A DNA stretch of 64,000 nt from Dehalococcoidia bacterium (lineage in GTDB: Bacteria; Chloroflexota; Dehalococcoidia; Lucifugimonadales; UBA3495), in NCBI GenBank assembly GCA_965221025.1, contig CBDCRJ010000001.1:388839-452838 (forward strand). The letters are read 5' to 3'. The notes beneath the pieces were generated by a model. It was not told the origin of the DNA. It was given only the letters and a program-made list of their open reading frames with translations, and made no database searches. Shown here piece after piece: positions 5,341-59,112 of this stretch. The translations under genes were made by a program, and so were the position numbers. Numbering within the stretch: position 1 is the stretch's first letter; each line of letters opens with the position of its first letter.

Positions 5341-5528
5341 AGCCGGCCGACCTCCCTGTCACCAGCCTACCCCTCGGACGGGCGTCGGAGCACCGGACTA
5401 CCGTTTCAGCAATCGTTTCCCGGTGACCGTAACAAGCTCTTCCGAAATCGTCTGCCCGATTATACCCAGCGGCGGCTTGGCCCAGCAACAAAACGGGGCG
5501 CCCCCCTCAGCGGTTCCGTGGGCCTTAC

Positions 5529-6746
5529 CTACGACGGAGCTCCGAAGGCCTCCGCCGCTAGGTCTACGATGTACTCCCCGATAGCCAGTGAAGAGGTAGC
5601 CCCCGGTGACGGCGCGTTCAAGACGTGAATCGCCTCCCGTCCCCGGATGATGTTGAAGTCGTCCAGCAGGCTGCCGTCCTTGGCAACCGCTTGGGCCCGT
5701 ACCCCGGAACCGCCGGAGGCCAGGTCGGTCTCCCGGATTTCGGGCAACAGGCGTTGCAGGTCGCGGAGGAACGTGCGCTTGCTGTAGGAGCGGTGTACCT
5801 CACCCAGTCCGATCTTCCAGTTCCGCAAAGTCATGCGCCAAAAGCCGCCGTAGGAAACGCTGCCCCAAGTCTCTCCCAGGTTGACGTCGCGTTTTCGATA
5901 GCCCTCGCGGCTGAAGGCCAAGACGGCGTTGGGGCCCGCTTCCACGCTGCCGGTGATGTTCCGGGTGTAGTGTACTCCCAGGAACGGGAACCGGGGGTCG
6001 GGCACCGGGTAGATCAGCCCGGAAACGAGGTGATGGCTTTCGGGCCGAAGGGTGTAATACTCCCCTCGAAATGGGATGATTCTCACGCCGACCGTTTCCC
6101 CGGTCATCTCGGCGATCCGGTCGGAATAGAGTCCAGCGCAGTTGATGATGTGTTTGGCCTGAACGGTGCCTTTGGGGGTTTCCAGTGACAACGAACCGCC
6201 GCGGCGGCGAATGTTCCGGACCGGCGCCTCGGTGAAAATATCGCCGCCCGCCTGCTGAAATCGCATGGCGTACGACCGGGCCACCTGTCCGTAGTCCACT
6301 ATACCGGTCTCGGGAGACCATAACGCTTGAACGCCGGCGGCGTGGGGTTCGATTTCCCGCAGCCGCTCCGGGCCGACCATTTCCAGGCCCGCCACACCGT
6401 TGGCGACCCCGCGATCATAAAGGGCTTGCAACCTGCCCAACTCCGATTCGTCGGTGGCGACGATTACCTTGCCGCACTGTTGGTACTCGATCTCGTTTTC
6501 TTCGCAGAAACGGAGAAGCTTGCTGACCCCGGCGACGCAAAACTGGGACTTGAAGGAGCCCGGACGGTAGTATATCCCCGAGTGAATGACGCCGCTGTTG
6601 TGGCCGGTCTGGTGGGTGGCCAGCCCGCTCTCCTTCTCCAGCACCACAACGCGCCAGCGTGGAACTCGGGCCGAGAGATGCATAGCCGTGGATAGCCCAA
6701 TGATCCCGCCGCCCACTATGGCAATGTCATATTCCTGTGATTCCAT
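5529..6746 (-). CDS. lhgO: L-2-hydroxyglutarate oxidase/dehydrogenase (FAD)
   Basis: FAD fold DIAIVGGGIIGLS plus the LhgO-typical HQTGHNSGVIHSGIYY. Length is 405 aa. Confidence 0.75.
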   Translation of the reverse strand: MESQEYDIAIVGGGIIGLSTAMHLSARVPRWRVVVLEKESGLATHQTGHNSGVIHSGIYYRPGSFKSQFCVAGVSKLLRFCEENEIEYQQCGKVIVATDESELGRLQALYDRGVANGVAGLEMVGPERLREIEPHAAGVQALWSPETGIVDYGQVARSYAMRFQQAGGDIFTEAPVRNIRRRGGSLSLETPKGTVQAKHIINCAGLYSDRIAEMTGETVGVRIIPFRGEYYTLRPESHHLVSGLIYPVPDPRFPFLGVHYTRNITGSVEAGPNAVLAFSREGYRKRDVNLGETWGSVSYGGFWRMTLRNWKIGLGEVHRSYSKRTFLRDLQRLLPEIRETDLASGGSGVRAQAVAKDGSLLDDFNIIRGREAIHVLNAPSPGATSSLAIGEYIVDLAAEAFGAPS

Positions 6747-6870: not shown

Positions 6871-7920
6871 ATGCAGTTCGGAATATTCATGGAGTTCGGC
6901 AGCCGGACCGGCTTCGAAGAGCCCAAGGCCTTTCAAGAGGGCTTTCGCTTGGTGGACAACGCCGAAGCGATGGGACTGGACGGGGTGTGGTTGGCCGAAC
7001 TGCACTTCAATCCGGCCCGTTCCGTTCTCTCCTCTCCCATCGTGGTCGCCAGTTCCATCGCTACCCGGACCAAGCGGCTGCGTATCGGGATGGCGGTCCA
7101 CGTACTTCCGCTGAACAACCCCTTACGCATTGCCGAGGAGGTTGCCACCGTCGATCAAATCAGCGAAGGCAGGTTTGACTTCGGAGTCGGCCGCAGCGGG
7201 TTCGCCCGCTCCTACGACCTTTATGGTATCCCCTACGTCGAAAGCCGCGAACGATTCCGCGAGGCCCTCGACATTATTGTGGAGTCGTGGAAGGGCCAGC
7301 CCTTCTCCCACGAGGGGAAATACTATCAATTCCAAGACGCCACCGTTTCACCCACTCCTTACCAGGTCCCCCATCCGCCCATTCGCATTGCCGCCACCAC
7401 CGCGGAGACCTTCCCTGTTCTGGGCAACGAAGGATACCCGATTTTCGTCGGTTTAAGGGGCATGGACATCCCGGAACTCAAAGCGAACCTCGATGAGTAC
7501 CGCCGGGCTTGGCATGAAGCCGGGCACCCGGGCGACGGCGACGTTTCCCTCCGTATACCGGTTTACGCCGGTGAAACGGAAGAATCGGCTATCGAGGAGC
7601 CTTGGGACAGCATCAGCGCTTACTTCAGCCGCATGGGGGCTTTGTACCGCGAGTCGGCGGGCCAGACTGGAATCGAAGCCACCGAGCTGCGCCAAGGCCG
7701 GGCCGAGGCGCTGGCCGCCATGTCATACGAACAAATGCTGGAAACCAAGGTTGCTTTCGGCACTGGCGAGTCCCTGATTGACCGTTTCTCCCAAATGAAG
7801 GAAGAGCTGGGACTCGACGGAGTGGTGGCCGAGTTGAACGCCGGCGGTCTGATCCCAGAGGACCGGGTTGCCCGCAGCCTGCGAGTGCTCACTGAGCAGG
7901 TAATGCCTGCGTTTCGTTAA
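6871..7920 (+). CDS. LLM-class (luciferase-like) flavin-dependent oxidoreductase
   Basis: 349-aa ORF preceded by a GGAGG RBS. It has the typical LLM N-terminus MQFGIFMEFG...AEAMGLDGVWLAELHF. Confidence 0.85.
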   Translation: MQFGIFMEFGSRTGFEEPKAFQEGFRLVDNAEAMGLDGVWLAELHFNPARSVLSSPIVVASSIATRTKRLRIGMAVHVLPLNNPLRIAEEVATVDQISEGRFDFGVGRSGFARSYDLYGIPYVESRERFREALDIIVESWKGQPFSHEGKYYQFQDATVSPTPYQVPHPPIRIAATTAETFPVLGNEGYPIFVGLRGMDIPELKANLDEYRRAWHEAGHPGDGDVSLRIPVYAGETEESAIEEPWDSISAYFSRMGALYRESAGQTGIEATELRQGRAEALAAMSYEQMLETKVAFGTGESLIDRFSQMKEELGLDGVVAELNAGGLIPEDRVARSLRVLTEQVMPAFR

Positions 7921-8030
7921 CTTGACCGGAACTTGTCCGTTCCCCGGTCCCGGGGAGGCGCCTACACGGCGCCTACACTCGGATGCGCTACCGCAGTTGC
8001 GTTAGAAACCGTCACTCAGGAGTCAACGTT

Positions 8031-9017
8031 ATGAAAATCGCAATCTTGGATGATTATCAAAACGTGGCCAAAGACATGGCCGATTGGTCACAGGCGCCTT
8101 CCGGCGCGGAGGTCGTCTATTTCAATGACCACCTGACCGACCAAGACGCCTTGGTGGAACGGCTCCGCGATTTCGACGTGGTGATGGGGATGCGGGAACG
8201 TACTCCATTCCAGCGTTCGTTGCTGGAACGGCTGCCCAACCTGCGGCTTCTGGTCACGACCGGGCGGCGCAACGCTTCCTTCGCCCTGGAGGCCGCCACC
8301 GAGCTTGGCATCCCGGTCTGCGGCACCGGCGGGGCGGGGGAGGGACCGGCGGAATTGACTTGGGGCCTGATTCTGGGCATCATCCGGCAAATTCCCCTGG
8401 AAGACCGGCTTTCCCGGCAAGGCTCTTGGGGAACAACCGTGGGGACGGGTCTCCAAGGCAAGACCCTCGGGCTACTGGGGCTGGGCCACATCGGCTCTCT
8501 GGTGGCCAGGGTGGGCATAGCCTTCGACATGAACATAATCGCTTGGAGCCAGAACCTCACCTCCGAACGCGCCCGGGAGTGCCAGGCCACGTTGGTGGAC
8601 AAGGACACCCTGTTCCGCGACTCCGACATCGTGTCGATACACGTCGTCCTGAGCCAGCGTACCACGGGACTGGTTGCCGCCCGGGAGTTGGGGTTGATGA
8701 AGCCCACGGCCTACTTCATCAACATTTCCCGCGGTCCCATAGTGGACGAGGCAGCGCTGGTAGACGCGCTACAACGCAAGGCCATCGCCGGGGCCGCGCT
8801 GGACACCTTCGACGTTGAGCCCTTGCCAGAGGGCCACCCGTTGCTAAAACTGGACAACACCCTCATCTGCCCCCACCTGGGCTACGTTACCGACGACTCG
8901 TACCGCGCCTTCTACGCCGACGTGGTGGAGAATATCCGCGCCTTTGACAGCGGGGAGCCGGTGCGTATGATGAACGAGCAGGTGCTCTCCTCTCCCCAAT
9001 TTCGCGGCTACCGCTAG
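8031..9017 (+). CDS. D-isomer-specific 2-hydroxyacid dehydrogenase family protein
   Basis: NAD-binding motif GLLGLGHIGSLVA and C-terminal catalytic region (ISRGPIVDE...CPHLGY). I chose the ATG at 8031 (MKIAILDDY). Confidence 0.85.
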   Translation: MKIAILDDYQNVAKDMADWSQAPSGAEVVYFNDHLTDQDALVERLRDFDVVMGMRERTPFQRSLLERLPNLRLLVTTGRRNASFALEAATELGIPVCGTGGAGEGPAELTWGLILGIIRQIPLEDRLSRQGSWGTTVGTGLQGKTLGLLGLGHIGSLVARVGIAFDMNIIAWSQNLTSERARECQATLVDKDTLFRDSDIVSIHVVLSQRTTGLVAARELGLMKPTAYFINISRGPIVDEAALVDALQRKAIAGAALDTFDVEPLPEGHPLLKLDNTLICPHLGYVTDDSYRAFYADVVENIRAFDSGEPVRMMNEQVLSSPQFRGYR

Positions 9018-9100
9018 ACGGGGAATCGAGCTGACCGGAAATCGCCTGCGGGAAAAACCGGCTACTAATCGAGAGATAGAAACGCGGGAGTTTAAAACAG

Positions 9101-10066
9101 ATGAAAGCAGTCCGCATTCACGAATTCGGTGGCCTTGACGTCCTGAACTGGGAGGACGCTCCCGAGCCGGAACCCAGGGCTCACCAAGTGTTGATCAAAG
9201 TAGATGCTGCCGGCGTGAACTACGCCGACCTGATGCGGCGCGGTGGCAACTATCCGGGCCCGGACCTCCCGTCGTCGCTGGGGCTGGAGGCCGCCGGCAC
9301 CGTAACCCAGGTGGGCTCAGAGGTAACCGGCATCGCCGTTGGTCAGCGGGTGATGGCCATGGGGCCGGGAGGCCAGGCCGAATACGTAGCCGTTAACGCC
9401 AACTTCGCGTTCCCTTACCCCGAAACCGTCGACCCGGTGCAGGCCGGGGGTATGCCCATCGTCTTTCTGACCGCCTACCACCTGCTGAAGACTCGAGGGC
9501 AACTGGAGCCGGGGCATACCGTGCTGGTGCAAGCCGGGGCTTCGGGAGTAGGCACGGTCGCAATACAACTGGCCAAGGCCTGGGGCGCCAGGGTGATAGC
9601 CACCGCCTCGACCGCCGAGAAGCTGGACCTTTGCCGGACTCTGGGCGCCGACGTGACCATCAACTACACCGAGCAAGACTTCGAAGACGCCGTAGGCCAA
9701 GAGACCGGAGGCAACGGTGTGGAATTGGTCCTTGAGTGCGTCGGTGGTCCGGTGCTGGAGAAAAGCGTTCGCTGCATCGCTTCTTACGGCCGGCTGGTTA
9801 CCTACGGCAACGCCTCGGGTACGCCGGCAAACCTGCCGGCGGTGGACATCTTTCCGGCCAACCGCAGCGTCATTGGCTTCAGCATCGGCCGCTCGCCCCA
9901 AGGGGTCTTGGACCATCAAGCGGCCATGTCCGAGATATTCCCCATGCTGGCCGACGGTAAAGCCAGACTGGTAGTGGACCGAGTGCTCCCCATGTCCGAA
10001 GTCGCCGACGCTCACCGGCATCTGGCCAACCGGGGCACCAAAGGAAAAGTCATTCTCACTCCTTAA
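9101..10066 (+). CDS. qor: NADPH:quinone oxidoreductase / zeta-crystallin-type MDR
   Basis: MKAVRIHEFGG..., cofactor motif QAGASGVGTVAIQLAK, and GKVIL near the C-terminus. Confidence 0.8.
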   Translation: MKAVRIHEFGGLDVLNWEDAPEPEPRAHQVLIKVDAAGVNYADLMRRGGNYPGPDLPSSLGLEAAGTVTQVGSEVTGIAVGQRVMAMGPGGQAEYVAVNANFAFPYPETVDPVQAGGMPIVFLTAYHLLKTRGQLEPGHTVLVQAGASGVGTVAIQLAKAWGARVIATASTAEKLDLCRTLGADVTINYTEQDFEDAVGQETGGNGVELVLECVGGPVLEKSVRCIASYGRLVTYGNASGTPANLPAVDIFPANRSVIGFSIGRSPQGVLDHQAAMSEIFPMLADGKARLVVDRVLPMSEVADAHRHLANRGTKGKVILTP

Positions 10067-10128: not shown

Positions 10129-11859
10129 GTGTCCGTGAAAGTTCGAGCCAGTCTGATTTTCGTCCTGGCAACCGCCATCCTGTTCATCGGATTGGCCGCC
10201 TGTGGCGGCGACTTCGACGAGGAATCACGCGAATTTGCCGTCCAGACCGACTCTGCCGCCGCTGCCGCTACCGCCGCCCCCGCCGCTGCCGCTACCGCCG
10301 CTACCGCCGCCCCCGCCGCTGCCCCTACCGCCGCCCCCGCCGCTCGGAGGGCGCCAACCGCCGTACCCGCGATGGCCGGAAGCCCTGGGGAAGCGTCAGG
10401 GCAATTCTTCGAGACATCACCAATGGGTCACGCCCAGGCAGCCGCGCTGGCGCAAAGCCGTATCATCGTACGCACCGTCGACATCGTCTTGGTCGTTTCC
10501 GACGTCGCGGCTGCCGCCGACAGAATCGACGGCCTGGTCCGCGGGGTGAGCGGTTGGAAAGTCAGCTCGGACCGCACTCACAAACACTTGGCCACCATTG
10601 CCGTCCGGGTGCCTGCTGAGGTGTTGGACCAAGTCGTGCTGGAATTGAGAGGAATGGCCCTGGACGTAGAGAGCGAGACCTCCACCAGCCAGGACGTAAC
10701 CGACGAGTACGTGGACACCGAGGCCCGGCTCAATGGGCTTCTCGCCACGGAAGCAAGGCTATTGGAGTTTCTCGACCGGGCGGGGGACGTGGAGGACGCG
10801 CTGAACGTCCAACTGGAAATCTCCCGGGTTCAAACGGAAAAAGAGACTATCCTGGGCAGATTGCGATTTCTTCAGGAAACGTCCGCCTACTCCCTGATGA
10901 ACATCGTCCTGCAGGTCCCGCCGGACCGGATGAGAGTCGACGTGGGCCCGGACGCCACATTCAGCGCGGGACAATTCGCCAGCTTCCGGGCGACCTTCAG
11001 CCCACCCAGCGGCGTTGATGAATTCACCTTCTCCTGGGACTTCGGCGATGGCTCGGGGCCGGTTCACGGCAATAGCAGCGCGCCAACTACCAACCCCGGA
11101 GAGCGGGTCACAGCCACGGTAACCCACACGTACGACGATGAGCGCTATTCCCCGTACATCGTGCAGCTTGTGGTCAAAGGGTCTGGCGACGCCGGTTTAG
11201 CCGAGGGTTCGGACACCCTGGAGGCCACCGTTACCAGGGTACCCACCATCGAGGTTTTCGCCGGCGAGCACCGGACGGTCGACGAAGGCGAAGAGGTCGA
11301 GTACGGCGGCTCTTTCACCCGCCCCGAGGGTTTGTGGGACCTCCGGTACCGTTGGGACTTCGGCGACGGATCGGCTACCGTCATCGGCGTTCCCGAGGAA
11401 GGTCTTACCCGTTCCGAAGCATCCCACGTCTACCGGGACTACCGTCCCCAACCCTACCGGGTGACTCTCACCGTTACGGCCCAGAGCGAGGCCGGAGAAG
11501 TCGAGGACTCGGGCTCGTTCGAAGTCCGGGTAAACGAGTCCGAGGGGTTCGTAGTCGCCGGATGGAATGCCGGAGGCCACGCCAAGAGCGCCGTCCGGGC
11601 CCTTTCCGTGTTCGGGCAAGTCTTGGGCACCATTGCCATCTGGTTGGGCATTTTCAGTCCCGTTTGGATAATCGGAGGCTTCATCATCTTCTTCTTGCCG
11701 CGTCTCAGGCGGCGGGCTTCCCGGTCTCCGGGTGGCGGCGCCCCCGATCCTAACATCTTAACGGCCCGTGTTGGCCGCTGGCGTCGCGGCGGCATCCCGC
11801 CGCCCGAGCAGTCCGGCCCTCCCAACCCGGCGGACCAAGCCCCGACAATTCGAGAATAA
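10129..11859 (+). CDS. Lipoprotein with DUF4349-like domain, two PKD-like repeats and a C-terminal TM anchor
   Basis: GTG start and a signal peptide with lipobox (LAACGG), followed by an Ala/Pro-rich linker. The coiled segment QDVTDEYVDTEARLNGLLATEARLLEFL is typical of DUF4349. Two WDFGDGS PKD signatures are present, plus the TM helix IAIWLGIFSPVWIIGGFIIFF. Confidence 0.65.
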   Translation: MSVKVRASLIFVLATAILFIGLAACGGDFDEESREFAVQTDSAAAAATAAPAAAATAATAAPAAAPTAAPAARRAPTAVPAMAGSPGEASGQFFETSPMGHAQAAALAQSRIIVRTVDIVLVVSDVAAAADRIDGLVRGVSGWKVSSDRTHKHLATIAVRVPAEVLDQVVLELRGMALDVESETSTSQDVTDEYVDTEARLNGLLATEARLLEFLDRAGDVEDALNVQLEISRVQTEKETILGRLRFLQETSAYSLMNIVLQVPPDRMRVDVGPDATFSAGQFASFRATFSPPSGVDEFTFSWDFGDGSGPVHGNSSAPTTNPGERVTATVTHTYDDERYSPYIVQLVVKGSGDAGLAEGSDTLEATVTRVPTIEVFAGEHRTVDEGEEVEYGGSFTRPEGLWDLRYRWDFGDGSATVIGVPEEGLTRSEASHVYRDYRPQPYRVTLTVTAQSEAGEVEDSGSFEVRVNESEGFVVAGWNAGGHAKSAVRALSVFGQVLGTIAIWLGIFSPVWIIGGFIIFFLPRLRRRASRSPGGGAPDPNILTARVGRWRRGGIPPPEQSGPPNPADQAPTIRE

Positions 11860-11887
11860 GAACAGCCCATTTCAGGAGGCGTCCATC

Positions 11888-12749
11888 ATGTCACACGCCC
11901 GTGAACGGTTTCGGGAGGTCCTCTCCCGTCCTTCCTGCACCCTGGCAGCCAATGTCTTCGACCCTCTGTCGGCCCGGATTGCTCACCTGGTGGGGTACGA
12001 GGTCTGCGTTCTCTCCGGCTCTGTGGGCAAGTCGGCCAGCCTGGGCGTCCCGGACGGCGTCCTTGCCAACATGTCGGACGTGGTGGACCATTGCCGCCGC
12101 ATTACCCGAATCGCAGACGTCAGCCTGATGGTCGACGCCGAAGATGGCTTCGGCAACGCGGTCAATGTGTTCCGGACCGTGCGGGAGATGGAGGCCGCAG
12201 GCGTCGCCGGAATCGAGATTGAGGACAACTTCGTACCCGGACGGTTCAACGTGGCGGAACCCGGACTGGTTTCCACGGAAGAACAGGTGGGGAAGCTGGA
12301 AGCGGCGGTCGCGGCCCGCACCGATCCCACCACCGTCATCGTGGCCCGTTCGGCGGCGTTAGGGGTTATGTCCGCTGGACGAAGCACTCGAACGGGTCCG
12401 GGCCTACTCCCAAACCGGGGCCGAGGCCCTGATGCTCACCGGCGCCGCCAGCCGGGAGCAGATCGAAGCGGTCCATCGGGCGACGCCCCTGCCGCTGTCT
12501 GTGCTGGCCCCGCCAGACGGCACCGCTAGCGACCCGACCTTCCTCGCCGCTAACCATGTGCGGATACTGATGTTGGGTAACCCGACGTTCGCGGTGGCCG
12601 CCAAAGCCATCCACGACACCCTCAAACACCTGAAAGACGGCGGAGCCCTCGAAGACACCACCTCAAACCAAGCCACCCCTGACCTTCTCCGCCAAGTCAA
12701 CGGCGCCGACGAGTACCTGGCCCTGCAGGAGCAATACCTGCGGGAGTAG
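11888..12749 (+). pseudogene. Second isocitrate lyase/PEP mutase family gene, frameshifted
   Basis: Track ORFs 11768..12529 (real ATG at 11888, MSHARERF) and 12432..12749 are the N- and C-terminal parts of one PEP-mutase-like protein (MVDAEDGFGN, GIEIEDN, VIVARS...). The frame changes between 12363 and 12375: ...AALGVMS then LDEALERVRAYSQTGAEALMLTG. Confidence 0.7.
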
Positions 12750-12757
12750 GGGGGCGA

Positions 12758-13297
12758 TCAGGCGAGGTTGGGCGTGACGGTTGTCGTGCTCAAGTCGATC
12801 GCTTCCACCAATTCCTCAACCGCGTGGCAGAGTCGCCTGAAGGAGCGGGAGTTGGCCGAGGCAAGGTCGAGATCGATTCGGGTAGTCAAAGAAGTTTGCT
12901 CCGCCGTTTCGCTATAATGCCGGCCGGGCAAGAAGTCCTTGAGACGGCCTTTGGCGTCTGCGACGGCTTCCGGGTCTCCAGGAAAACTCCCGGCACCCTC
13001 AATTATCGATTCGAGACTGGACAAGAACCAACTCTCATATTCTCTTACCGCGCAAACAACCGCAACCGGAGTCCGCGTGTCCCGGGCGATACACCGGTCT
13101 GCCAATCCCTTCGCCAGATCGCGAGGACACTCATCATCGGAGTCTCGGATTACGAGGATTGCGTCGGGGTTGGATTCCAATGCGTACTCAATAAAGCTCT
13201 CGATTCGCCTCGTCAAATTCCCAGAGCCTTTGGCGCTGACCGTCTTACCGACAACGTAATCGTAGAGTCCCATGCGTTCGTAAAGAAGCCGACGCAA
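12758..13297 (-). CDS. DUF4276-like protein, apparently 5'-truncated
   Basis: 179-aa ORF with ILVIRDSDDE, REYESWFL and a C-terminal ...SANSRSFRRL, which resembles DUF4276 from memory. Only a TTG start at 13297 is available, and the in-frame upstream stop (13313-13315) lies inside the left inverted repeat. The N-terminal EGxxE strand typical of the family is missing. Confidence 0.55.
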   Translation of the reverse strand: MRRLLYERMGLYDYVVGKTVSAKGSGNLTRRIESFIEYALESNPDAILVIRDSDDECPRDLAKGLADRCIARDTRTPVAVVCAVREYESWFLSSLESIIEGAGSFPGDPEAVADAKGRLKDFLPGRHYSETAEQTSLTTRIDLDLASANSRSFRRLCHAVEELVEAIDLSTTTVTPNLA

Positions 13298-13298
13298 C

Positions 13299-13323
13299 GG
13301 TTCCGTTTGCCTTTAGCGTATGC
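13299..13323 (+). repeat. Left terminal inverted repeat
   Basis: Exact 25-nt match to the reverse complement of 17365-17389. Confidence 0.9.
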
Positions 13324-13375
13324 CCTATGGTAGCATCGCGGCGTGATTGAAATCAACGTCCTTTGCGGGTAGACC

Positions 13376-15014
13376 ATGCCGACCCGACTTCTGTACAGCA
13401 ACGATTGCCTGAACGTCCTGAACGACGAGTTGGCCTTGCCCACAGGCTCGGTTGACCTCATCTACCTGGACCCGCCTTTCAACTCCAAAAGCATCTACAA
13501 CCTGCCGTTTGCAGGCAAGGACAAAGACGCCCGGCCTGTCGAGGCATTCAACGACACTTGGACTTGGGGCACCCAAGAGGACGCATTGCTACGGGACCTG
13601 TCCACTGGCCCACAGTCGCGCATCTTGGCCGATATAGTCAGTCTGGCCCAGCGGCTGGACACCCAAAAGTCGGGGGGGGGGGGGACTCGCCCCCTACCTG
13701 CTCAACATGGCGGTGCGGCTACTGGCGATGCGACGGGTGTTGTCGCCGCAGGGATCGATCTACCTTCACTGTGACGACGCGGCCAGCCACTTCCTCAAGC
13801 TGGTGATGGACGCCGTTTTCGGCCAGCAGAATTTCAGAAACGAAATCATCTGGAAGCGCACCAGCGCCCACAACGATGCCCGCCAGGGCAGAGAGCAATA
13901 TGGCCGGGTCCACGATACGTTGCTGTTCTACACCAAGGGCGGCTCGTGGGCTTGGCATCAGATTTACACCGGGTACGACCGGACCTATGTCGAGGCGTTC
14001 TACAAGCACGTTGAACCAGGGACAGGGCGTAGATACCGGCTGGACAATTTGGCCGGGCCTTACGGCGCGGCCAAAGGCAATCCCTACTACGAAGTGATGG
14101 GCGTGAGCCGTTATTGGCGATACAGCCAAGAGCGTATGCAGGAGCTGATTGGCCAAGGCCGGATTGTGCAGACCCGGCCGGGCGCAGTCCCGGCCTACAA
14201 ACGCTACCTAGACGAAATGCCGGGGTTGCCGCTCCAAGACGCATGGACCGATATAGGCCCAATCGCATCACAGGCCAGGGAACGCCTCGGCTACCCGACA
14301 CAGAAGCCGCTTGCCCTGCTGGAGCGCATCATCACGGCCAGTTGCCCCCCCGATGGTCTGGTGTTGGACCCGTTCTGCGGTTGCGGCACGTCGGTACACG
14401 CCGCCGAGAAGCTGGGGCGGAGCTGGGTCGGCATCGACATATCCACCTTTGCGGTCGGCCTGATGCGGGGCCGGATACTGCGAAACTTCGGCCAGTTGAC
14501 CACCGATGACGTGCTGGTGCGCGGCGTTCCGGTCAACGTGGGCGAGGCGGAATCTCTGGCGGAGCGGGACAAGTTCGAGTTCGAGAAGTGGGTATGCGGC
14601 GCGATAGGGGCGGAAGGGATGTTTCACGACCCCGGCACACGAGGGGCGGATGGCGGGGTGGACGGCGTACTGAAGTTCTATCCCTTTCGCATGGGAAAGG
14701 CTCCAAAAGCGGAGTTCGCTATCGTTCAGGTCAAGGGCGGGAGCGTTAGCGCGGACTCGGTGCGGGCTCTCAAGACGACGGTGGACCGCTTTGGTGCCAA
14801 GGCCGGGGTGTTGGTGTGCTTCAACCGCTATATGCGGACAGTGGAAAACCAGCGGGTGAAGGCGACATTCACGGACGATGCAGGGGCCTACCCGGTGATT
14901 CAGGGGTTGAGCGTAGAGGACTTGTTGGGAGACAAGCGCCCGGACCTGCCGCTGTACGGATACCGTCCGCAGGGCGGGCGGGTCAGCAATCAAGCCGAGT
15001 TATTGGCTCGGTAG
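13376..15014 (+). pseudogene. Beta-class N6A/N4C DNA methyltransferase fused to an Mrr-cat-type restriction endonuclease domain, out of frame at a G13 tract
   Basis: Track ORFs 13376..13774 and 13707..15014 are one gene. Motif IV DPPFN is in the first ORF. APYLLNMAVRLLAMRRVLSPQGSIYLHCD and motif I FCGCGTS are in the second. The C-terminus FEFEKWV...GADGGVDGV...IVQVKGG matches the PD-(D/E)xK Mrr-cat pattern. A tract of 12 or 15 G would give one 545-546-aa ORF. Confidence 0.8.
13672..13684 (+). repeat. Homopolymeric G13 tract inside the methyltransferase ORF
   Basis: Counted directly: c + 9 g (13671-13680) + 4 g (13681-13684). Confidence 0.95.
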
Positions 15015-15017
15015 ACA

Positions 15018-15290
15018 ATGGGGTGGGGGATAGAGAATAGAGGGATGAATTGGTGCAGGCTTGTTGGAGCCGTGGTCCTACTATTGGCCCTTGCCATTGC
15101 CATCATCTACGTGGTGGCGCCACTGGTTTTCATCCTGATTCTCATGGTATTGGCGGCAATATGGTCGTTCGTGATAGCTATTGGGGTCTTTGTCTACGGT
15201 AAAGATTTGCCAACATGGGCAAGGCGGTCGGTACTGTTGGTGGGTTTGGGTTTGGCTGCTTTTCTGATGTACGATACCTTTGCCAGATAG
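15018..15290 (+). CDS. Small membrane protein (3 predicted TM helices)
   Basis: 90-aa ORF starting 4 nt after the methyltransferase stop, with three hydrophobic stretches. It overlaps a competing minus-strand 73-codon single-TM ORF (15178..15397), so the call is tentative. Confidence 0.4.
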   Translation: MGWGIENRGMNWCRLVGAVVLLLALAIAIIYVVAPLVFILILMVLAAIWSFVIAIGVFVYGKDLPTWARRSVLLVGLGLAAFLMYDTFAR

Positions 15291-15493
15291 CAACCCATAG
15301 CGCGACAGCAAATCCGCCCATCAACGAGACGATGATGATAAGGATTGTCGCCAACCACCAAGGCGGGACGTAGGGGGCAGGTTCCATTTCAGTCTTTCTT
15401 CCAACGGCCTGAAGTAGTTGGAACATTTTAGCATACCACAGCGAGACCACGGAGCCCCGACGATCTCCATTCAAGAAGAAGGGGGTGGAAGCG

Positions 15494-15724
15494 ATGAGTT
15501 ACACCGATGATGAACTCAAGGAAAAGCGTCTCCGGTATCTCAAGGACTGCAAGCCGAAAGAACTCCGGCAGCTTCGCAAGGACGGCGCCCTGGCCGACGC
15601 CCTGGACCGGCGGGTTGCCCGTTGCCGCCGCCGTGCTGAGGAACTGATGGATAGCGGCACCTTTGAGGGACAAGCCTGGAGTTGGGCCGTCCGTGAAGTG
15701 CTACTTGAGACGGAGGCAGACTGA
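15494..15724 (+). CDS. Hypothetical protein (76 aa, helical, Arg/Glu-rich)
   Basis: ATG at 15494 preceded by GGGGGTGGA. The ORF is packed 37 nt upstream of the next ORF. I did not recognise a family. Confidence 0.45.
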   Translation: MSYTDDELKEKRLRYLKDCKPKELRQLRKDGALADALDRRVARCRRRAEELMDSGTFEGQAWSWAVREVLLETEAD

Positions 15725-15761
15725 GGCGTGGTGGTTACTCTAGTTGGCTTAGTCAACCAAA

Positions 15762-16037
15762 ATGGCTAGGCGTAAGAGCGGCCGCGCAAGCCTGACCGAC
15801 TATGAGTTGGCCTGGGTGGTGCGGGAAGTCGCCAAGCTAACCGACAAGAGTTTCCGCGAGATCGGAGAGGCCCTTGCCAACGATATGTTCGACCACGAAG
15901 ATTCCCTGACGGAGTACGACTACACGTTGGGCATGAATGTCGCGGGAACGCTGGAAACGCTCTGGCCCAGGGAAGGGGAATGGAAGCCCGGGCCGGATGC
16001 GGAACGGGCATTGAACCTGATTCGGCGGGTCTTGTGA
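15762..16037 (+). CDS. Hypothetical protein (91 aa)
   Basis: The ORF ends 19 nt before the transposase start, in an operon-like arrangement. I did not recognise a family. Confidence 0.45.
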   Translation: MARRKSGRASLTDYELAWVVREVAKLTDKSFREIGEALANDMFDHEDSLTEYDYTLGMNVAGTLETLWPREGEWKPGPDAERALNLIRRVL

Positions 16038-16056
16038 GGGGAGGGAAGGGCTGGGT

Positions 16057-17151
16057 ATGACTGAATTCACTAAAACCACGACCATCACTGTCAATTGCCC
16101 TGATTGCGATTCCGACCATGTGGTGAAGATAGGTAAGCAATCGGGCCAGCAACGCTATCGGTGCCGTGGTTGCAACAAAGACTTTCGGGCCAACGGCAAG
16201 GCCAAGGGCCGGCACATGGACGCGGAGCTCATGGGCTCGGCCATCCGGGACTTCTACACGGGTAAAAGTTATAAGCAAATAGCCGAGGGGCTGAAAGAGG
16301 AATACGACCTGGAGAAAGAGCCATCGAAGGCCACGATCTACGAATGGGTAAGGGACTACACCGATCAGGCCGTGGCAGAAATGTCTAACCACAAGGCCAA
16401 GACCGGCGGCCGTTGGGTGGCGGATGAGCTAATGGTGGACGTCGGCGGCCAGAAGGTGTGGCTATGGAACGTCATGGACGCCGAGACCCGCTACATCCTC
16501 GCATCGCACCTAACCCCCAGGCGCGACGCTCAGGCGGCGCGTGTCGTTATACGAAAGGCGGCGCTGGCGGCAGACAAGCCGCCCAAGACCATCACCACCG
16601 ACAAGCTCAGGTCCTACATCCGGCCAATCAAGGACGTTCTGCCGGAGGCCGACCATATCCTGTCGGAAGGCTTGCGGGCGGAGGTCAACAACAACCTTTC
16701 GGAGCGGCTACAGGGAACGTTCCGGGACCGCATCAAGACGCTCCGGGGCATGGACAGTCTCAAGACCGGGCAACGCTACCTTGACGGTTGGGTTCTCACC
16801 TACAACCTTTTCCGGGGCCACGAGAGTTTGCATAACAAGACGCCGGGGTACAAGGCCAAGGTGAACCCGCCGTTCAAGGAATGGGCCGACGTGGTAAAAG
16901 ACGGGGCCGCGTCTCTGCCAGTCAAGACAGCGGAGACGCGGCCAGCCTCACGGTCGCCACGGAAGTCGCCACGGCGTCAAGCCGTCCGCGTGGAACCGCC
17001 CAAGGCCAAGGGAAAAGGCGGAGACGCCGCCGAGTTCAAGCCCCTGCCGCCGGGGATTCTCCGGGCGCTACCCAGGGCGATGCGCCCCAAGGCCGGGGGG
17101 AGAACGTGCAAGCCGAGGGGCAAATCGGCCGTTAGAAGCCGGGTGGCATGA
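16057..17151 (+). CDS. IS6-family-like (IS240-type DDE) transposase with N-terminal zinc ribbon
   Basis: CPDCDS...CRGCN zinc ribbon. The DDE core follows the IS6 pattern: ADELMVDVGG (D), TITTDKLRSY (D), NNNLSERLQGTFRDRIK (E). The C-terminal tail is basic and low-complexity. Confidence 0.75.
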   Translation: MTEFTKTTTITVNCPDCDSDHVVKIGKQSGQQRYRCRGCNKDFRANGKAKGRHMDAELMGSAIRDFYTGKSYKQIAEGLKEEYDLEKEPSKATIYEWVRDYTDQAVAEMSNHKAKTGGRWVADELMVDVGGQKVWLWNVMDAETRYILASHLTPRRDAQAARVVIRKAALAADKPPKTITTDKLRSYIRPIKDVLPEADHILSEGLRAEVNNNLSERLQGTFRDRIKTLRGMDSLKTGQRYLDGWVLTYNLFRGHESLHNKTPGYKAKVNPPFKEWADVVKDGAASLPVKTAETRPASRSPRKSPRRQAVRVEPPKAKGKGGDAAEFKPLPPGILRALPRAMRPKAGGRTCKPRGKSAVRSRVA

Positions 17152-17160
17152 GGAGACAAA

Positions 17161-17340
17161 ATGGAAATCACCTGCGGGGTTTGTGGGGGACAGGTGGTAC
17201 CGGAGCGAAGCGTCCGCTGGCCGGTCGTCGGGTGTTTGTTAGTTCTGTTCTGGCCGCTCGTCCCCTTCTACATCCTGTATGCGTGGCCTCGGAACCGTTG
17301 CCCGGATTGCGGCAGCAACGTGTATCACCGGCCCGCCTAA
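17161..17340 (+). CDS. 59-aa zinc-ribbon/TM mini-protein (below the ORF-track cutoff)
   Basis: Hand translation: MEITCGVCGGQVVPERSVRWPVVGCLLVLFWPLVPFYILYAWPRNRCPDCGSNVYHRPA*. This is CxxC, then one TM helix, then CxxC. It starts 10 nt after the transposase stop. Confidence 0.4.
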   Translation: MEITCGVCGGQVVPERSVRWPVVGCLLVLFWPLVPFYILYAWPRNRCPDCGSNVYHRPA

Positions 17341-17365
17341 ATGGTCTCGCGAGACCATTTAGGCG
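17334..17365. repeat. Perfect 32-bp palindrome abutting the right inverted repeat
   Basis: CGCCTAAATGGTCTCG|CGAGACCATTTAGGCG. The TAA of the mini-ORF (17338-17340) and the TAA of the ATPase (17359-17361, minus strand) each lie in one arm. Confidence 0.9.
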
Positions 17366-18606
17366 CATACGCTAAAGGCAAACGGAACCCTATGAAGTTC
17401 TCCCGGTGTAAAGAGTTTTTTGGTGACCGCATTCCGTTGATCTTCAGCGACCAGTCCGGCAATGGTCCCGCCATCAGTCATTTCGACTGCCCGAATACTG
17501 TTTACAGGTACTAAATCCAGGAAATCCGGGCTGTGGGTAGTGACCAAAAGGGACATTCGCTCTGTCGCGACCTCTCCCATCAACTCCGCTATGTACGCCA
17601 ATGCGCCAGGATGTATGGTGAGTTCCGGTTCCTCGATAACCTTCAGGCCCGGGGCCTGTTGGTAAAGCGCCACCAAAAGGCCCAGAAGACATAGGGTGCC
17701 GTCCGACTCCTGGAATCCCTCTAAAACCAAATCCTTTGCCCTTGGTTTGTCCGGCTCGTGAGTAAACTGGAGATATAAATGACCACCGGCCGATTTTACT
17801 CCGACATTTTTTATCCCTGGTACTACGTGCCCTAGGGCCGCGAGTAGCTCCTTGAAGTCTTCGTCACGTTTCTTAATCATCTCATCGAGGACGGACCCCA
17901 AATTCCCGGCGTCTTCGTTTAGCGGAAAACCCGCCGAAGTCCTTTGAGGCTCCCGTAGGGCGTTCGGAAAGATATGGTAGCGCCGTATTTCACTGAGGAG
18001 TTCTTTCGCTCCAACCAAAGTTTGGCCATACTTCGAAAAACCCTGTCGCCCAATCGCCAGACGAGTCCAAACTGTGATAAGAGGACTCGATAACGCCAAA
18101 TCCGACGCGGGTGTTTTGAACAGTTCCGGTTCCATAACTGAATTCGGTCGCCCAAACAACTCTGGGGACCGCTTCGATACACTTGATACCGAAGGCATTG
18201 TTAGCCGCCCGCCCGTAAATGCCAATGCGGTCCGGTTGGTATCACTTTCTTTCGGTGTGACGGTCATATTTTCGGTTCGAACCCTATGGTCCCCGGTCCC
18301 AGAGAATCGAAGGGAAAATTCATACTCGAATAACGACTCGGGATGATCGATCCCAACTCCTACGGTAACGTCTCCCCGGTCTCTCCGAATTGCAGCACGG
18401 CCCCGGGCCGCCAATGCTGAGTCCAATCCATCCCGAAGCGCATCTGAAATGAACACCAGAATGTCTGCGATGTTGCTTTTTCCAGAGCCGTTCGGTCCCA
18501 CTAACACCGTGAGAGGGGCTAACTCCAACTCGAGGCTCTGGATACTGCGGAAATTCTTCGCCCAGATTTTCGTGATTCTTGGTATCGTTGGCTGTTCCAT
18601 GGTCAC
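17359..18606 (-). CDS. ABC/SMC-like AAA ATPase (AAA_21/AAA_15 type) with a non-native C-terminal end
   Basis: Walker A GPNGSGKSN, Walker B/D-loop VIEEPELTIHP, and TTHSPDF. GC content is visibly lower than in neighbouring genes. The last 8 codons and the stop come from the repeat and palindrome of the inserted element. Confidence 0.8.
   Translation of the reverse strand: MTMEQPTIPRITKIWAKNFRSIQSLELELAPLTVLVGPNGSGKSNIADILVFISDALRDGLDSALAARGRAAIRRDRGDVTVGVGIDHPESLFEYEFSLRFSGTGDHRVRTENMTVTPKESDTNRTALAFTGGRLTMPSVSSVSKRSPELFGRPNSVMEPELFKTPASDLALSSPLITVWTRLAIGRQGFSKYGQTLVGAKELLSEIRRYHIFPNALREPQRTSAGFPLNEDAGNLGSVLDEMIKKRDEDFKELLAALGHVVPGIKNVGVKSAGGHLYLQFTHEPDKPRAKDLVLEGFQESDGTLCLLGLLVALYQQAPGLKVIEEPELTIHPGALAYIAELMGEVATERMSLLVTTHSPDFLDLVPVNSIRAVEMTDGGTIAGLVAEDQRNAVTKKLFTPGELHRVPFAFSVCA
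17365..17389 (-). repeat. Right terminal inverted repeat
   Basis: Exact reverse complement of 13299-13323. It also encodes the last residues (VPFAFSVC) of the ATPase ORF. Confidence 0.9.
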
Positions 18607-18642
18607 GCCTACATGAATTGCCTTGCTATTATCATAGCCCCG

Positions 18643-19497
18643 TCACCCACCCCTCAGGAAGTTCAGTACGTGGGAGGTGTATTCCTCGGGCTTTTCGTAG
18701 GGGACCCAGTGGCCGCAGTTGTTGAGGACGACCAAGCGGGAGTCGGCGATGTTGTTCAGGGCCGCGATGCCGATTTCGAAGACGCACATGCGGTCGTAGC
18801 GGCCCCAGATGACCAGGCTTGGCGCGGTGATGTTGGGCAGGTCGACACCGTGATCGTAAGGCACGCTCACCGACTTGGCGTCGGCTTCGATGTGGTCTCG
18901 GTTGCCGGTGTAGCTGCCGTAGATGTAGTCCACCAGCTCCTCGGTAACCAAGGCGTCGTCATCAATGTGAGTCCGCAGGTAGCGGCGCACATTTTCGCGC
19001 GTTGGGTTGTCTCGCACCTCGCGGGTTACCAAACTGCCCTCCGATGGCCGGTTGCCCATCAGGTATAGATCGCCGCCGGTGCGGATATGACACGCGCCGA
19101 ACACCAGCTTGTTCACCCGCTCCGGTTCCTTCATCGCCAGCACCATCGCGCTCTGCCCGCCTTGGGAGTTGCCCAAAAGGTGGGCCCTGTCGATCCCTAA
19201 CTCGTCCATCAACCCCAAGGCGGTGCGGGCTTGCAGGTTGTGAAGCGGCTCTTCATAGACCACAGGCCCCGTGCGGCCGAAGTTGGGCAGGTCCATCACG
19301 ATGCAGCGAAAATGCTCCGCGAAGGCTGGCAGCACTTTGTGGAAGGTAATCCAGCCAGTGGTGCCCGGCCCGTAGGAATGGAGCATCACCAGCGGGTCCC
19401 CGGCTCCAACGTCGTGGTAGTGAACGGTCATGCCATTCACTAGCGCCGTCTTGCTGGTCGAGCCTTCGGTGAATGCCGCTGCGGTCATGTCGGTCAT
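18643..19497 (-). CDS. Alpha/beta hydrolase, meta-cleavage-product (BphD/MhpC-like) hydrolase type
   Basis: Nucleophile elbow GNSQGG, HG-type oxyanion region MLHSYGPG, C-terminal NNCGHW(V)PYE, 284 aa. Confidence 0.75.
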   Translation of the reverse strand: MTDMTAAAFTEGSTSKTALVNGMTVHYHDVGAGDPLVMLHSYGPGTTGWITFHKVLPAFAEHFRCIVMDLPNFGRTGPVVYEEPLHNLQARTALGLMDELGIDRAHLLGNSQGGQSAMVLAMKEPERVNKLVFGACHIRTGGDLYLMGNRPSEGSLVTREVRDNPTRENVRRYLRTHIDDDALVTEELVDYIYGSYTGNRDHIEADAKSVSVPYDHGVDLPNITAPSLVIWGRYDRMCVFEIGIAALNNIADSRLVVLNNCGHWVPYEKPEEYTSHVLNFLRGG

Positions 19498-58779: not shown

Positions 58780-58825
58780 TCAATAGCCAAGAGACTCTCA
58801 CCCTCTAGCGCGAAGTGTATCAAGT

Positions 58826-59000
58826 CTTGCTGAAAGGCAGGTCTCCTGACTTCCGGGGCCATATCCTGCGCCTTGTCCAGCCCCCGCAGGGGCCGTTACA
58901 GCCAAGAGATACAACCACCGGTAACAGTGGCGCGACCGCGCCGGACTCACACCGGCTTCCCTTTTCATCCCGATACAATCGGGACACCAATCAGCGATTC
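58826..59000 (-). promoter_or_regulatory. Cobalamin (B12) riboswitch aptamer
   Basis: The minus strand contains AAAAGGGAAGCCGGTGTGAGTCCGGCGCGGTCGCGCCACTGT (GCCACTG at 58925-58931). It also contains the B12 box AGTCAGGAGACCTGCC (58836-58851). Confidence 0.85.
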
Positions 59001-59112
59001 CAGTTTGTTAATACGTCCCGCTGCCGGGACGCGCCACAATTATATGTACCCGGTGGGCTAGCGTCAAGGGACTTGCCGCGCCCTTCAGGAACATTTAATT
59101 GTTGGAGAAATT

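Follow-up and report, generated by a model that had tools for sequence, protein, structure and literature searches.

In a 64,000-nucleotide stretch of contig CBDCRJ010000001.1 from a Dehalococcoidia bacterium (the window), two minus-strand open reading frames (ORFs) encode an ABC-type ATPase and a small protein of the DUF4276 family. Between them lies an insertion sequence (IS) of the IS6 family that carries passenger genes. This work concerns the gene pair, the element that separates it, and an element-free allele of the same locus on a related contig. The features are listed in Table 1.

Table 1 Features of the interrupted gene pair and of the inserted element, in window coordinates.
Feature	Position	Strand	Remarks
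HEC-01A-like ABC-type ATPase ORF	17359..18606	-	415 aa, GTG start
Native part of the ATPase	17390..18606	-	406 codons from the GTG of the 415-aa ORF
Foreign ATPase tail, (R)VPFAFSVCA and stop	17359..17389	-	from the right inverted repeat and the edge of the palindrome
HEC-01B-like, TOPRIM-like DUF4276 gene remnant	12758..13298	-	ORF 12758..13297, 179 aa, TTG start
IS6-family element with passenger genes (transporter IS, tIS)	13299..17389	+	4,091 bp; all ORFs on the + strand
Left terminal inverted repeat, GGTTCCGTTTGCCTTTAGCGTATGC	13299..13323	+	25 nt
Right terminal inverted repeat	17365..17389	-	perfect complement of the left repeat
Palindrome abutting the right repeat	17334..17365		perfect, 16+16
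N6/N4 DNA methyltransferase with C-terminal Mrr-type restriction-endonuclease-like domain	13376..15014	+	split into 132-aa and 435-aa ORFs
Homopolymer of 13 G at the frameshift point	13672..13684	+	in frame at 12, 15 or 18 G
Passenger ORF, hydrophobic, probably membrane-associated	15018..15290	+	90 aa
Two small passenger ORFs	15485..15724, 15762..16037	+	79 aa, 91 aa
IS6-family DDE transposase with N-terminal zinc ribbon	16057..17151	+	364 aa
ORF with CxxC...CxxC, between the transposase gene and the right end	17161..17340	+	59 aa

The ATPase matches AAA_21 (AAA_15/AAA_21) in Pfam at 2e-26 and the small ORF matches DUF4276 at 9e-8 (32.9 bits; cutoff 30.2), and both matches exceed the gathering scores. 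The ATPase carries a Walker A motif (GPNGSGKSN), a Walker B/D-loop motif (VIEEPE) and an H-loop (TTHSP). Its remnant retains every invariant column of our alignment A2 and has no further lesions, but it lacks the stop and the final 11 native codons, and with them the conserved MEGL tail. In their place, RVPFAFSVCA is read from the junction across the right terminal repeat of the element, with the stop inside the palindrome. The DUF4276 remnant has lost its N-terminal ~21 codons (M/V-PRYIVPVVEGIGERSAVPEL), among them those for the VEGxGE glutamate motif and for strand β1, and the in-frame stop upstream of it lies inside the left repeat. It retains the DxD motif (ILVIRDSDDE), REYESWF and RSFRRL, and is 99% identical to the 200-residue homologue P0241. 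Judged by its sequence, the remnant cannot be an active TOPRIM enzyme, even if translated from the TTG codon, because strand 1 and the glutamate are lost.

The guanine and cytosine (GC) content of the pair is 0.52-0.57, compared with 0.60-0.65 in the flanks. A contig from an independent Logan assembly (L007) is identical to window positions 17361-18728. Since it reproduces the junction between the ATPase and the right repeat, this junction is not an assembly chimera.

An earlier note, made from the letters of this DNA alone, had described the pair as a candidate defence module split by a mobile element, and most of its description stands. Both ORFs have the coordinates and starts it gave and belong to the families it named. 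The pair is interrupted by an element with perfect 25-nt inverted repeats and both genes are damaged at the junctions, with 101 bp lost. The note had also correctly taken the VPFAFSVCA tail to be foreign, recognized the missing N-terminal EG motif and the upstream stop in the left repeat of the DUF4276 remnant, and found the ATPase gene to be richer in AT than its neighbours.

The element-free allele and the insertion

The closest ATPase homologues among the 120 listed, P0002 and P0003, are 90% and 85% identical to the window protein. Their contigs share the neighbours of the window, with a luciferase-like oxidoreductase and an alpha/beta hydrolase on one side and a PEP mutase and a DUF4349/PKD protein on the other. 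Contig L001, which carries P0002, has flanks 96-97% identical to those of the window over 4.3 and 8.6 kb, and it thus serves as an element-free allele. Its ATPase gene (8001-9248, 415 residues) ends in TAA and is followed after 2 nt by a GTG-start DUF4276 gene (9251-9853, 200 residues). The uninterrupted locus that the earlier note had proposed to look for in relatives therefore exists in a syntenic position, and it holds two genes and not a fusion.

The alignment of the window with L001 runs up to both element junctions, leaving 101 bp of L001 (9212-9312) without a counterpart. On the ATPase side, these comprise the codons for the last 11 residues (MEGLRVSGRFG), the stop and the 2-nt spacer; on the DUF4276 side, they comprise most of the first 21 codons (VPRYIVPVVEGIGERSAVPEL), the last of them only in part. 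The C-terminus of the ATPase (...LFTPGELH[SR]MEGL...) is conserved family-wide, with MEGL[QR]... in homologues and a native end of the form ...FTPGELH[SR]MEGLxxxxxx, and the window sequence diverges right after H403-R404.

Removing 13299..17389 on paper joins the remnants into a 585-residue ORF (...TPGELHR/LRRLLYERMG...), which reproduces the in-frame join of about 585 residues predicted in the earlier note. The two L001 genes are offset by +2 nt, and the loss of 101 bp (101 = 3 x 33 + 2; 101 mod 3 = 2) brings both remnants into one reading frame. The fused ORF thus results from the deletion, and such a product never existed. It would be devoid of the first strand and the catalytic glutamate of the nuclease.

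With up to 3 mismatches allowed, the 25-nt terminal repeat is found just twice in the window, where none is expected by chance. The transposase scores 130.9 bits against NF033587 (transpos_IS6; cutoff 125), matches DDE_Tnp_IS240 (3.8e-21) and Zn_ribbon_InsA in Pfam, and falls within a large metagenomic family of transposases of ~355-375 residues. A related IS6-family element on contig L008 (4981-7128; 2,148 bp) encodes a transposase 78% identical to that of the window and a single passenger ORF of 158 residues. It has 38-nt imperfect inverted repeats homologous to those of the window (GGTGCCGTTTGC... and GGTTCCGTTTGC...), its right end holds a 19+19 palindrome, and its target is duplicated perfectly over 8 bp (GGCGGTTA). 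Passenger genes and a right-end palindrome thus recur in this transposase clade. Target repeats of 8 bp are a hallmark of the IS6 family, whose transposition is replicative and, when intramolecular, removes the stretch that separates the IS from a nearby target (PMC7986276).

No target-site duplication was found at the window element, which is flanked by GACGCAAC and CTATGAAG. The element would first have inserted at the gene boundary of an intact two-gene cassette. Intramolecular replicative transposition of the IS6 type would then have targeted a new site nearby and removed the DNA between it and the IS end, erasing the 8-bp duplication in the same event, in which 101 bp were lost. We infer this deletion mechanism from the missing duplication and the 101-bp loss. 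The inactivation appears to be recent, since the repeats are perfect, the transposase is intact, the remnants are free of further lesions and their nucleotide identity to L001 is still high (99.2% for the DUF4276 gene and 93.6% for the ATPase gene).

Relation to HEC-01 and other ATPase-TOPRIM systems

The best PADLOC models for both proteins are those of HEC-01. The ATPase is assigned to HEC-01A (PDLC04178 at 2.2e-69, with nine more HEC-01A models among the 25 matches listed) and the DUF4276 protein to HEC-01B (PDLC04200 at 2.5e-34 and PDLC04196 at 4.9e-34). At E<=0.01, the DUF4276 protein matched HEC-01 models only, while weaker matches of the ATPase include AriA (5e-26), mad3 (1.5e-23) and AbiLi (1.5e-21), and also PDC-M07, Old and GajA. 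Payne et al. introduced HEC-01 as the combination of an ABC ATPase with a TOPRIM-like protein (bioRxiv 10.1101/2024.01.29.577857). Intact relatives of the window pair have the same gene order and the same sizes (~415 and ~200 residues), and the ATPase is followed by a separate DUF4276 gene in all six loci examined (L001, L002, L003, L009, L010 and L011), with ATPase identities from 85% down to ~40% in the last five. The adjacent two-gene unit that the earlier note had described as normal for these families, and the parallel it drew to conflict systems of an ATPase and a TOPRIM-like protein, are thereby borne out. A homologue 44% identical to the ATPase, among the 120 listed, comes from a Chloroflexota metagenome-assembled genome.

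In contrast to intact HEC-01, the window copy is split by an element and shortened, and it is solitary among metabolic genes instead of lying within an Hma system. Its two ORFs lie 4,091 bp apart and neither is complete, so that the adjacency and completeness typical of HEC-01 are absent from the window, and the copy is a degraded HEC-01 member. We consider it very probable that the locus is a HEC-01-type cassette, composed of an ABC-type ATPase and then a separate DUF4276 protein of ~200 residues, that was destroyed by an IS6-family transposon with the loss of 101 bp.

Other ATPase-TOPRIM systems resemble the pair in part. In the MADS system of Pseudomonas aeruginosa, Mad3 corresponds to the ATPase, which matches MAD3 models, and Mad4 is cited as a DUF4276 homologue in the Menshen study, which places DUF4276 in the Toprim superfamily with a conserved Glu and DxD. 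Deletion of mad3 or mad4 lowered MADS defence, and mad5 could be deleted only along with mad2 or mad3. However, the match of the ATPase to NF047739 (MAD3) in NCBIfam (7e-32) reaches 111 bits, well short of the equivalog cutoff of 420, and mad1, mad2 and mad5-8, of which mad6-8 form the mandatory core, are absent from the neighbourhood, which instead holds a hydrolase, a luciferase-like oxidoreductase and a PEP mutase.

PARIS likewise consists of two genes, the ABC ATPase AriA and the TOPRIM nuclease AriB, and DUF4276 is named in the PARIS paper as one partner of AAA15/21 defence ATPases. The window partner, however, is DUF4276 and not the DUF4435 of AriB, of which Pfam and PADLOC scans of the window pair gave no match, and the AriA match is much weaker than that to HEC-01A. 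The nearest solved relative of the ATPase by sequence is 6p74_A of the OLD family (1e-13), followed by PtuA. In the OLD family (P2 Old and the class 2 OLD protein GajA of Gabija), ATPase and TOPRIM domains share one chain, whereas the window pair is natively two chains. RloA/RloB and AbiL resemble the pair through a RloB-like viral structural match and the AbiLi match; the structural match is weak (14% identity), and Pfam gave no RloB match.

The motifs expected of a TOPRIM domain are present in the intact DUF4276 protein. In alignment A1 (37 sequences), the N-terminal IVPIVEGxGE is followed by an invariant D73, a D75 conserved in at least 90% of the sequences, and conserved REYESWF and RSFRRLCHA motifs. 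The glutamate after strand β1 is found in full-length homologues (predicted strand 3-9) and was lost from the window copy with the 101 bp, and the DxD after strand β3 is kept in the window copy at the end of the predicted strand 67-74. In the AlphaFold model of intact P0241 (confidence score, pLDDT, 95), strand 1 precedes the Glu and strand 3 the DxD, an arrangement expected of a TOPRIM fold.

By analogy with OLD, PARIS and Gabija, the intact cassette would pair a sensor with an effector. The ATPase, with its hypervariable middle insert, would sense an infection cue, and the partner TOPRIM-like protein would act as a metal-dependent nuclease.

The chromosomal slot and competing explanations

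The order alpha/beta-hydrolase, pair, PEP-mutase forms a conserved slot in a group of related uncultivated bacteria, and its content varies more than its flanks. On L003 (9200-9725), the flanking proteins are 94-97% identical to those of the window and the DUF4276 protein only 53%. On L011 (5001-6835), which shares the slot, identity is 84-89% in the flanks, 46% in the ATPase and 51% in the DUF4276 protein. At the nucleotide level, the window and L003 become similar again no earlier than the final ~180 nt of the DUF4276 gene. This pattern suggests that cassette alleles are replaced by recombination between conserved flanks. Within the ATPase, a middle insert (codons ~121-200; window 17998-18240, minus strand) aligns poorly across the family and has a ratio of nonsynonymous to synonymous substitution rates (dN/dS) of ~1 between the window and L001, compared with <=0.14 in conserved blocks. 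The hypervariable insert may be a specificity or sensor region. Its dN/dS of ~1, the divergent alleles and the low GC content are variation typical of conflict genes.

A HEPN/nucleotidyltransferase (MNT-type) pair lies ~4 kb upstream of the cassette in relatives (L002 and L003, 3111-3839; L001, 3530-3829), and the neighbourhood therefore holds at least one other conflict-type module. The gene of the PEP-mutase/isocitrate-lyase family in the window (11768..12749, plus strand) is split into 11768..12529 and 12432..12749 by a frameshift near 12380-12530. It is also split in L001 (222 + 59 residues) and intact in L002, L003 and L011 (285-286 residues); it is either a shared pseudogene or an assembly error. 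The ATPase relative P0006 (on a contig of 15,297 nt) is 83% identical over 87% of the query, with ~70 unrelated N-terminal residues and an apparent frameshift, and its DUF4276 partner P0362 is called at 183 residues. Here the cassette may have decayed a second time, independently, or the sequencing may be at fault.

A number of results weigh against our interpretation of the locus. HEC-01 gave no protection in the E. coli assay of the study that defined it (bioRxiv 10.1101/2024.01.29.577857), while a later preprint reports that E. coli B with a cold-seep representative was protected from one or more of the phages T4, T5 and T7 (bioRxiv 10.1101/2024.09.26.614923). With one negative and one positive test, the function of HEC-01 is weakly established, and because the original test was negative, the support for an anti-phage role of the family consists of one positive preprint and of analogy. 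The view that the pair had no experimentally defined function is nevertheless outdated, given these two phage tests and the mad3 and mad4 deletions. The cassette is flanked by metabolic genes and not by an obvious defence island. The structure searches give the TOPRIM assignment little help: Foldseek with the P0241 model found no TOPRIM among the 50 PDB matches listed, which are generic three-layer alpha/beta folds only, and no match of any kind at E<=1e-3. The best match in the viral database BFVD is a RloB-like protein, at a weak E of 2e-3 and template-modelling (TM) scores of 0.53/0.51. At the profile level, hhalign against P2 Old pairs VPVVEGIGE with VLLVEGKTE at a non-significant E of 0.084, Pfam OLD-like_TOPRIM appears in one DUF4276 homologue only (E 0.042), and the DUF4276 profile has no match among PDB sequences at E<=10. 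Of the comparison with TOPRIM, OLD and RloB proposed in the earlier note, the motifs thus fit and the fold and profile matches are weak. TOPRIM membership of DUF4276 is a claim of the literature with which the motifs are consistent and which has no independent confirmation here. As for the element, scans of GTDB representative genomes and JGI metagenomes gave no second exact copy, and the adjacent deletion is an inference only: the locus could also have formed by two insertions that then recombined, or by one insertion and a later, unrelated deletion.

Other explanations of the locus were weighed against this evidence. The earlier note had raised an originally fused, OLD-like ATPase-nuclease of about 585 residues, split by the element and restored by its precise excision, next to a one-in-three chance frame after a small junction deletion. 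The in-frame join speaks for a fused ancestor, as do the fused ATPase-TOPRIM proteins of related families (OLD, HEC-04 and merged AriAB). It is refuted by the element-free syntenic allele L001, where a stop and 2 nt separate two genes and relative to which the window is short of 101 bp. The other five loci also hold two genes, and no fused-length homologue occurs among the 120 matches listed for either protein, all of which are 401-458 residues long for the ATPase and 160-231 for DUF4276. Furthermore, the join skips both the conserved ATPase C-terminus and the VEGxGE motif. A fused ancestor is practically untenable, and the 101-bp loss with the +2 offset shows the chance frame that the note had given as its alternative. 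An assembly artefact, in which a repeat-induced chimera of a long-read metagenome conceals a genome with an intact cassette, is very improbable. The window and its relatives do come from metagenome assemblies, with some uncertainty at the sequence level, and there are frameshifts at homopolymers such as the run of 13 G and in the PEP-mutase gene; yet L007 reproduces the right-hand junction exactly, and perfect inverted repeats with a defined 101-bp replacement are a pattern that a misjoin would not give.

It is also unlikely, though less so than an artefact, that the pair has no immune role and is a dispensable housekeeping or repair ATPase-nuclease, with a RecF/SMC-like ATPase and a TOPRIM partner. 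The stable slot between metabolic genes in several related genomes and the absence of an anti-phage effect of HEC-01 in one test would fit such a role. Against it stand the best matches of the proteins, which are defence models (HEC-01, PDC-M07, AriA, mad3, AbiLi, Old and GajA), the atypically low GC content, the hypervariable ATPase insert with its dN/dS of ~1, and the divergence of alleles between flanks that are 84-97% identical. In addition, the cassette was lost here without an obvious replacement, and one HEC-01 representative protected E. coli.

Cargo of the element and meaning of the locus

The element resembles IS6/IS26 in its transposase, which is above the IS6 cutoff, in its terminal repeats, which start with GG, in its L008 relative with the 8-bp duplication, and in the loss of adjacent DNA, which matches the outcome of intramolecular transposition in this family. 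It differs in size and content, with 4.1 kb and about seven ORFs (~six passengers) instead of the usual 0.7-0.9 kb and one ORF, in its 364-residue zinc-ribbon transposase, in repeats of 25 and not 14 nt, and in the absence of a duplication from the window copy. With 4,091 bp and about seven ORFs, it fits the passenger-carrying variant (tIS), for which the 2021 review of the family names ISDsp3 of Dehalococcoides as the sole precedent (PMC7986276). No internal copy of the inverted repeat, as expected of a smaller IS with captured DNA, was found; 14-mer matches at 3 mismatches are at chance level.

The first passenger, with which the left-end operon of the element starts, is the methyltransferase-Mrr gene. 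Removal of one G from its homopolymer gives a continuous ORF of 545 residues that matches N6_N4_Mtase (3e-37) and Mrr_cat. On contig L020, a 75%-identical gene has 17 G at the same codon (6297-6313) and is likewise split, and the diverged homologues P0365, P0366, P0367, P0372, P0374, P0376 and P0393 are truncated by a frameshift at the poly-G position. Full-length methyltransferase homologues carry an ordinary linker there, and homologues in JGI metagenomes (37-47% identical) are without the tract and without linkage to IS6. Tract lengths in long-read metagenome assemblies are unreliable, and the coverage of L020 is 3x; the tract may be a systematic homopolymer assembly error. However, the tract is long and has kept its place although the genes differ at ~25% of their nucleotides, which suggests that the site is truly hypermutable, through phase variation or slippage. 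It is conceivable, if doubtful, that the element is a mobile phase-variable restriction/modification or epigenetic switch that is spread by IS6 transposition and here displaced a resident ATPase-TOPRIM cassette.

The methyltransferase-Mrr gene of L020 is surrounded by IS6-like terminal-repeat fragments with 3 mismatches to the 20-mer of the window (5347-5366, 7749-7768 and 7800-7819), which include a ~70-bp pair of inverted ends resembling a miniature inverted-repeat transposable element (MITE). There is no IS6 transposase within 6 kb of this gene, and IS110-type and DDE_3/DDE_Tnp_1-type transposase genes are found near it.

Among the four small passenger ORFs, Pfam and PHROGs gave no family above threshold, and only a sub-threshold match to DUF1272 on the 59-residue ORF. 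In GTDB representative genomes, the terminal 20-mer of the element had 3 matches, which we attribute to chance (~1 expected) as the similarity stops at 20 nt, and the 25-mer had no match in JGI metagenome contigs. Exact-sequence look-ups of the window transposase, of its 96% relative P0121 and of the 435-residue methyltransferase ORF returned no record. An Rfam scan of the window found only a cobalamin riboswitch (RF00174, 95 bits, 58819-59006, minus strand), unrelated to the cassette, and a promoter and terminator scan gave nothing above shuffled expectation.

The candidate defence family to which the locus belongs is known but poorly characterised, and the locus is an ordinary member of it that appears to have been inactivated recently. 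The value of its analysis is mostly corrective, in that an apparent split fusion gene is the coincidence of a 101-bp deletion and the pair already bears the name HEC-01. Few IS6 members are known to carry cargo, and the element described here, whose methyltransferase-Mrr gene is interrupted by poly-G, adds modestly to them; it is the only part of the locus with some novelty. For the candidate defence family, the locus records how an IS6-type element has naturally knocked out a cassette, in a slot that appears as a site where nuclease and ATPase alleles swap between otherwise near-identical genomes. L001 (P0002 + P0241/P0363) provides the intact reference allele, usable for phage-challenge or biochemical tests of the ATPase + DUF4276 family.

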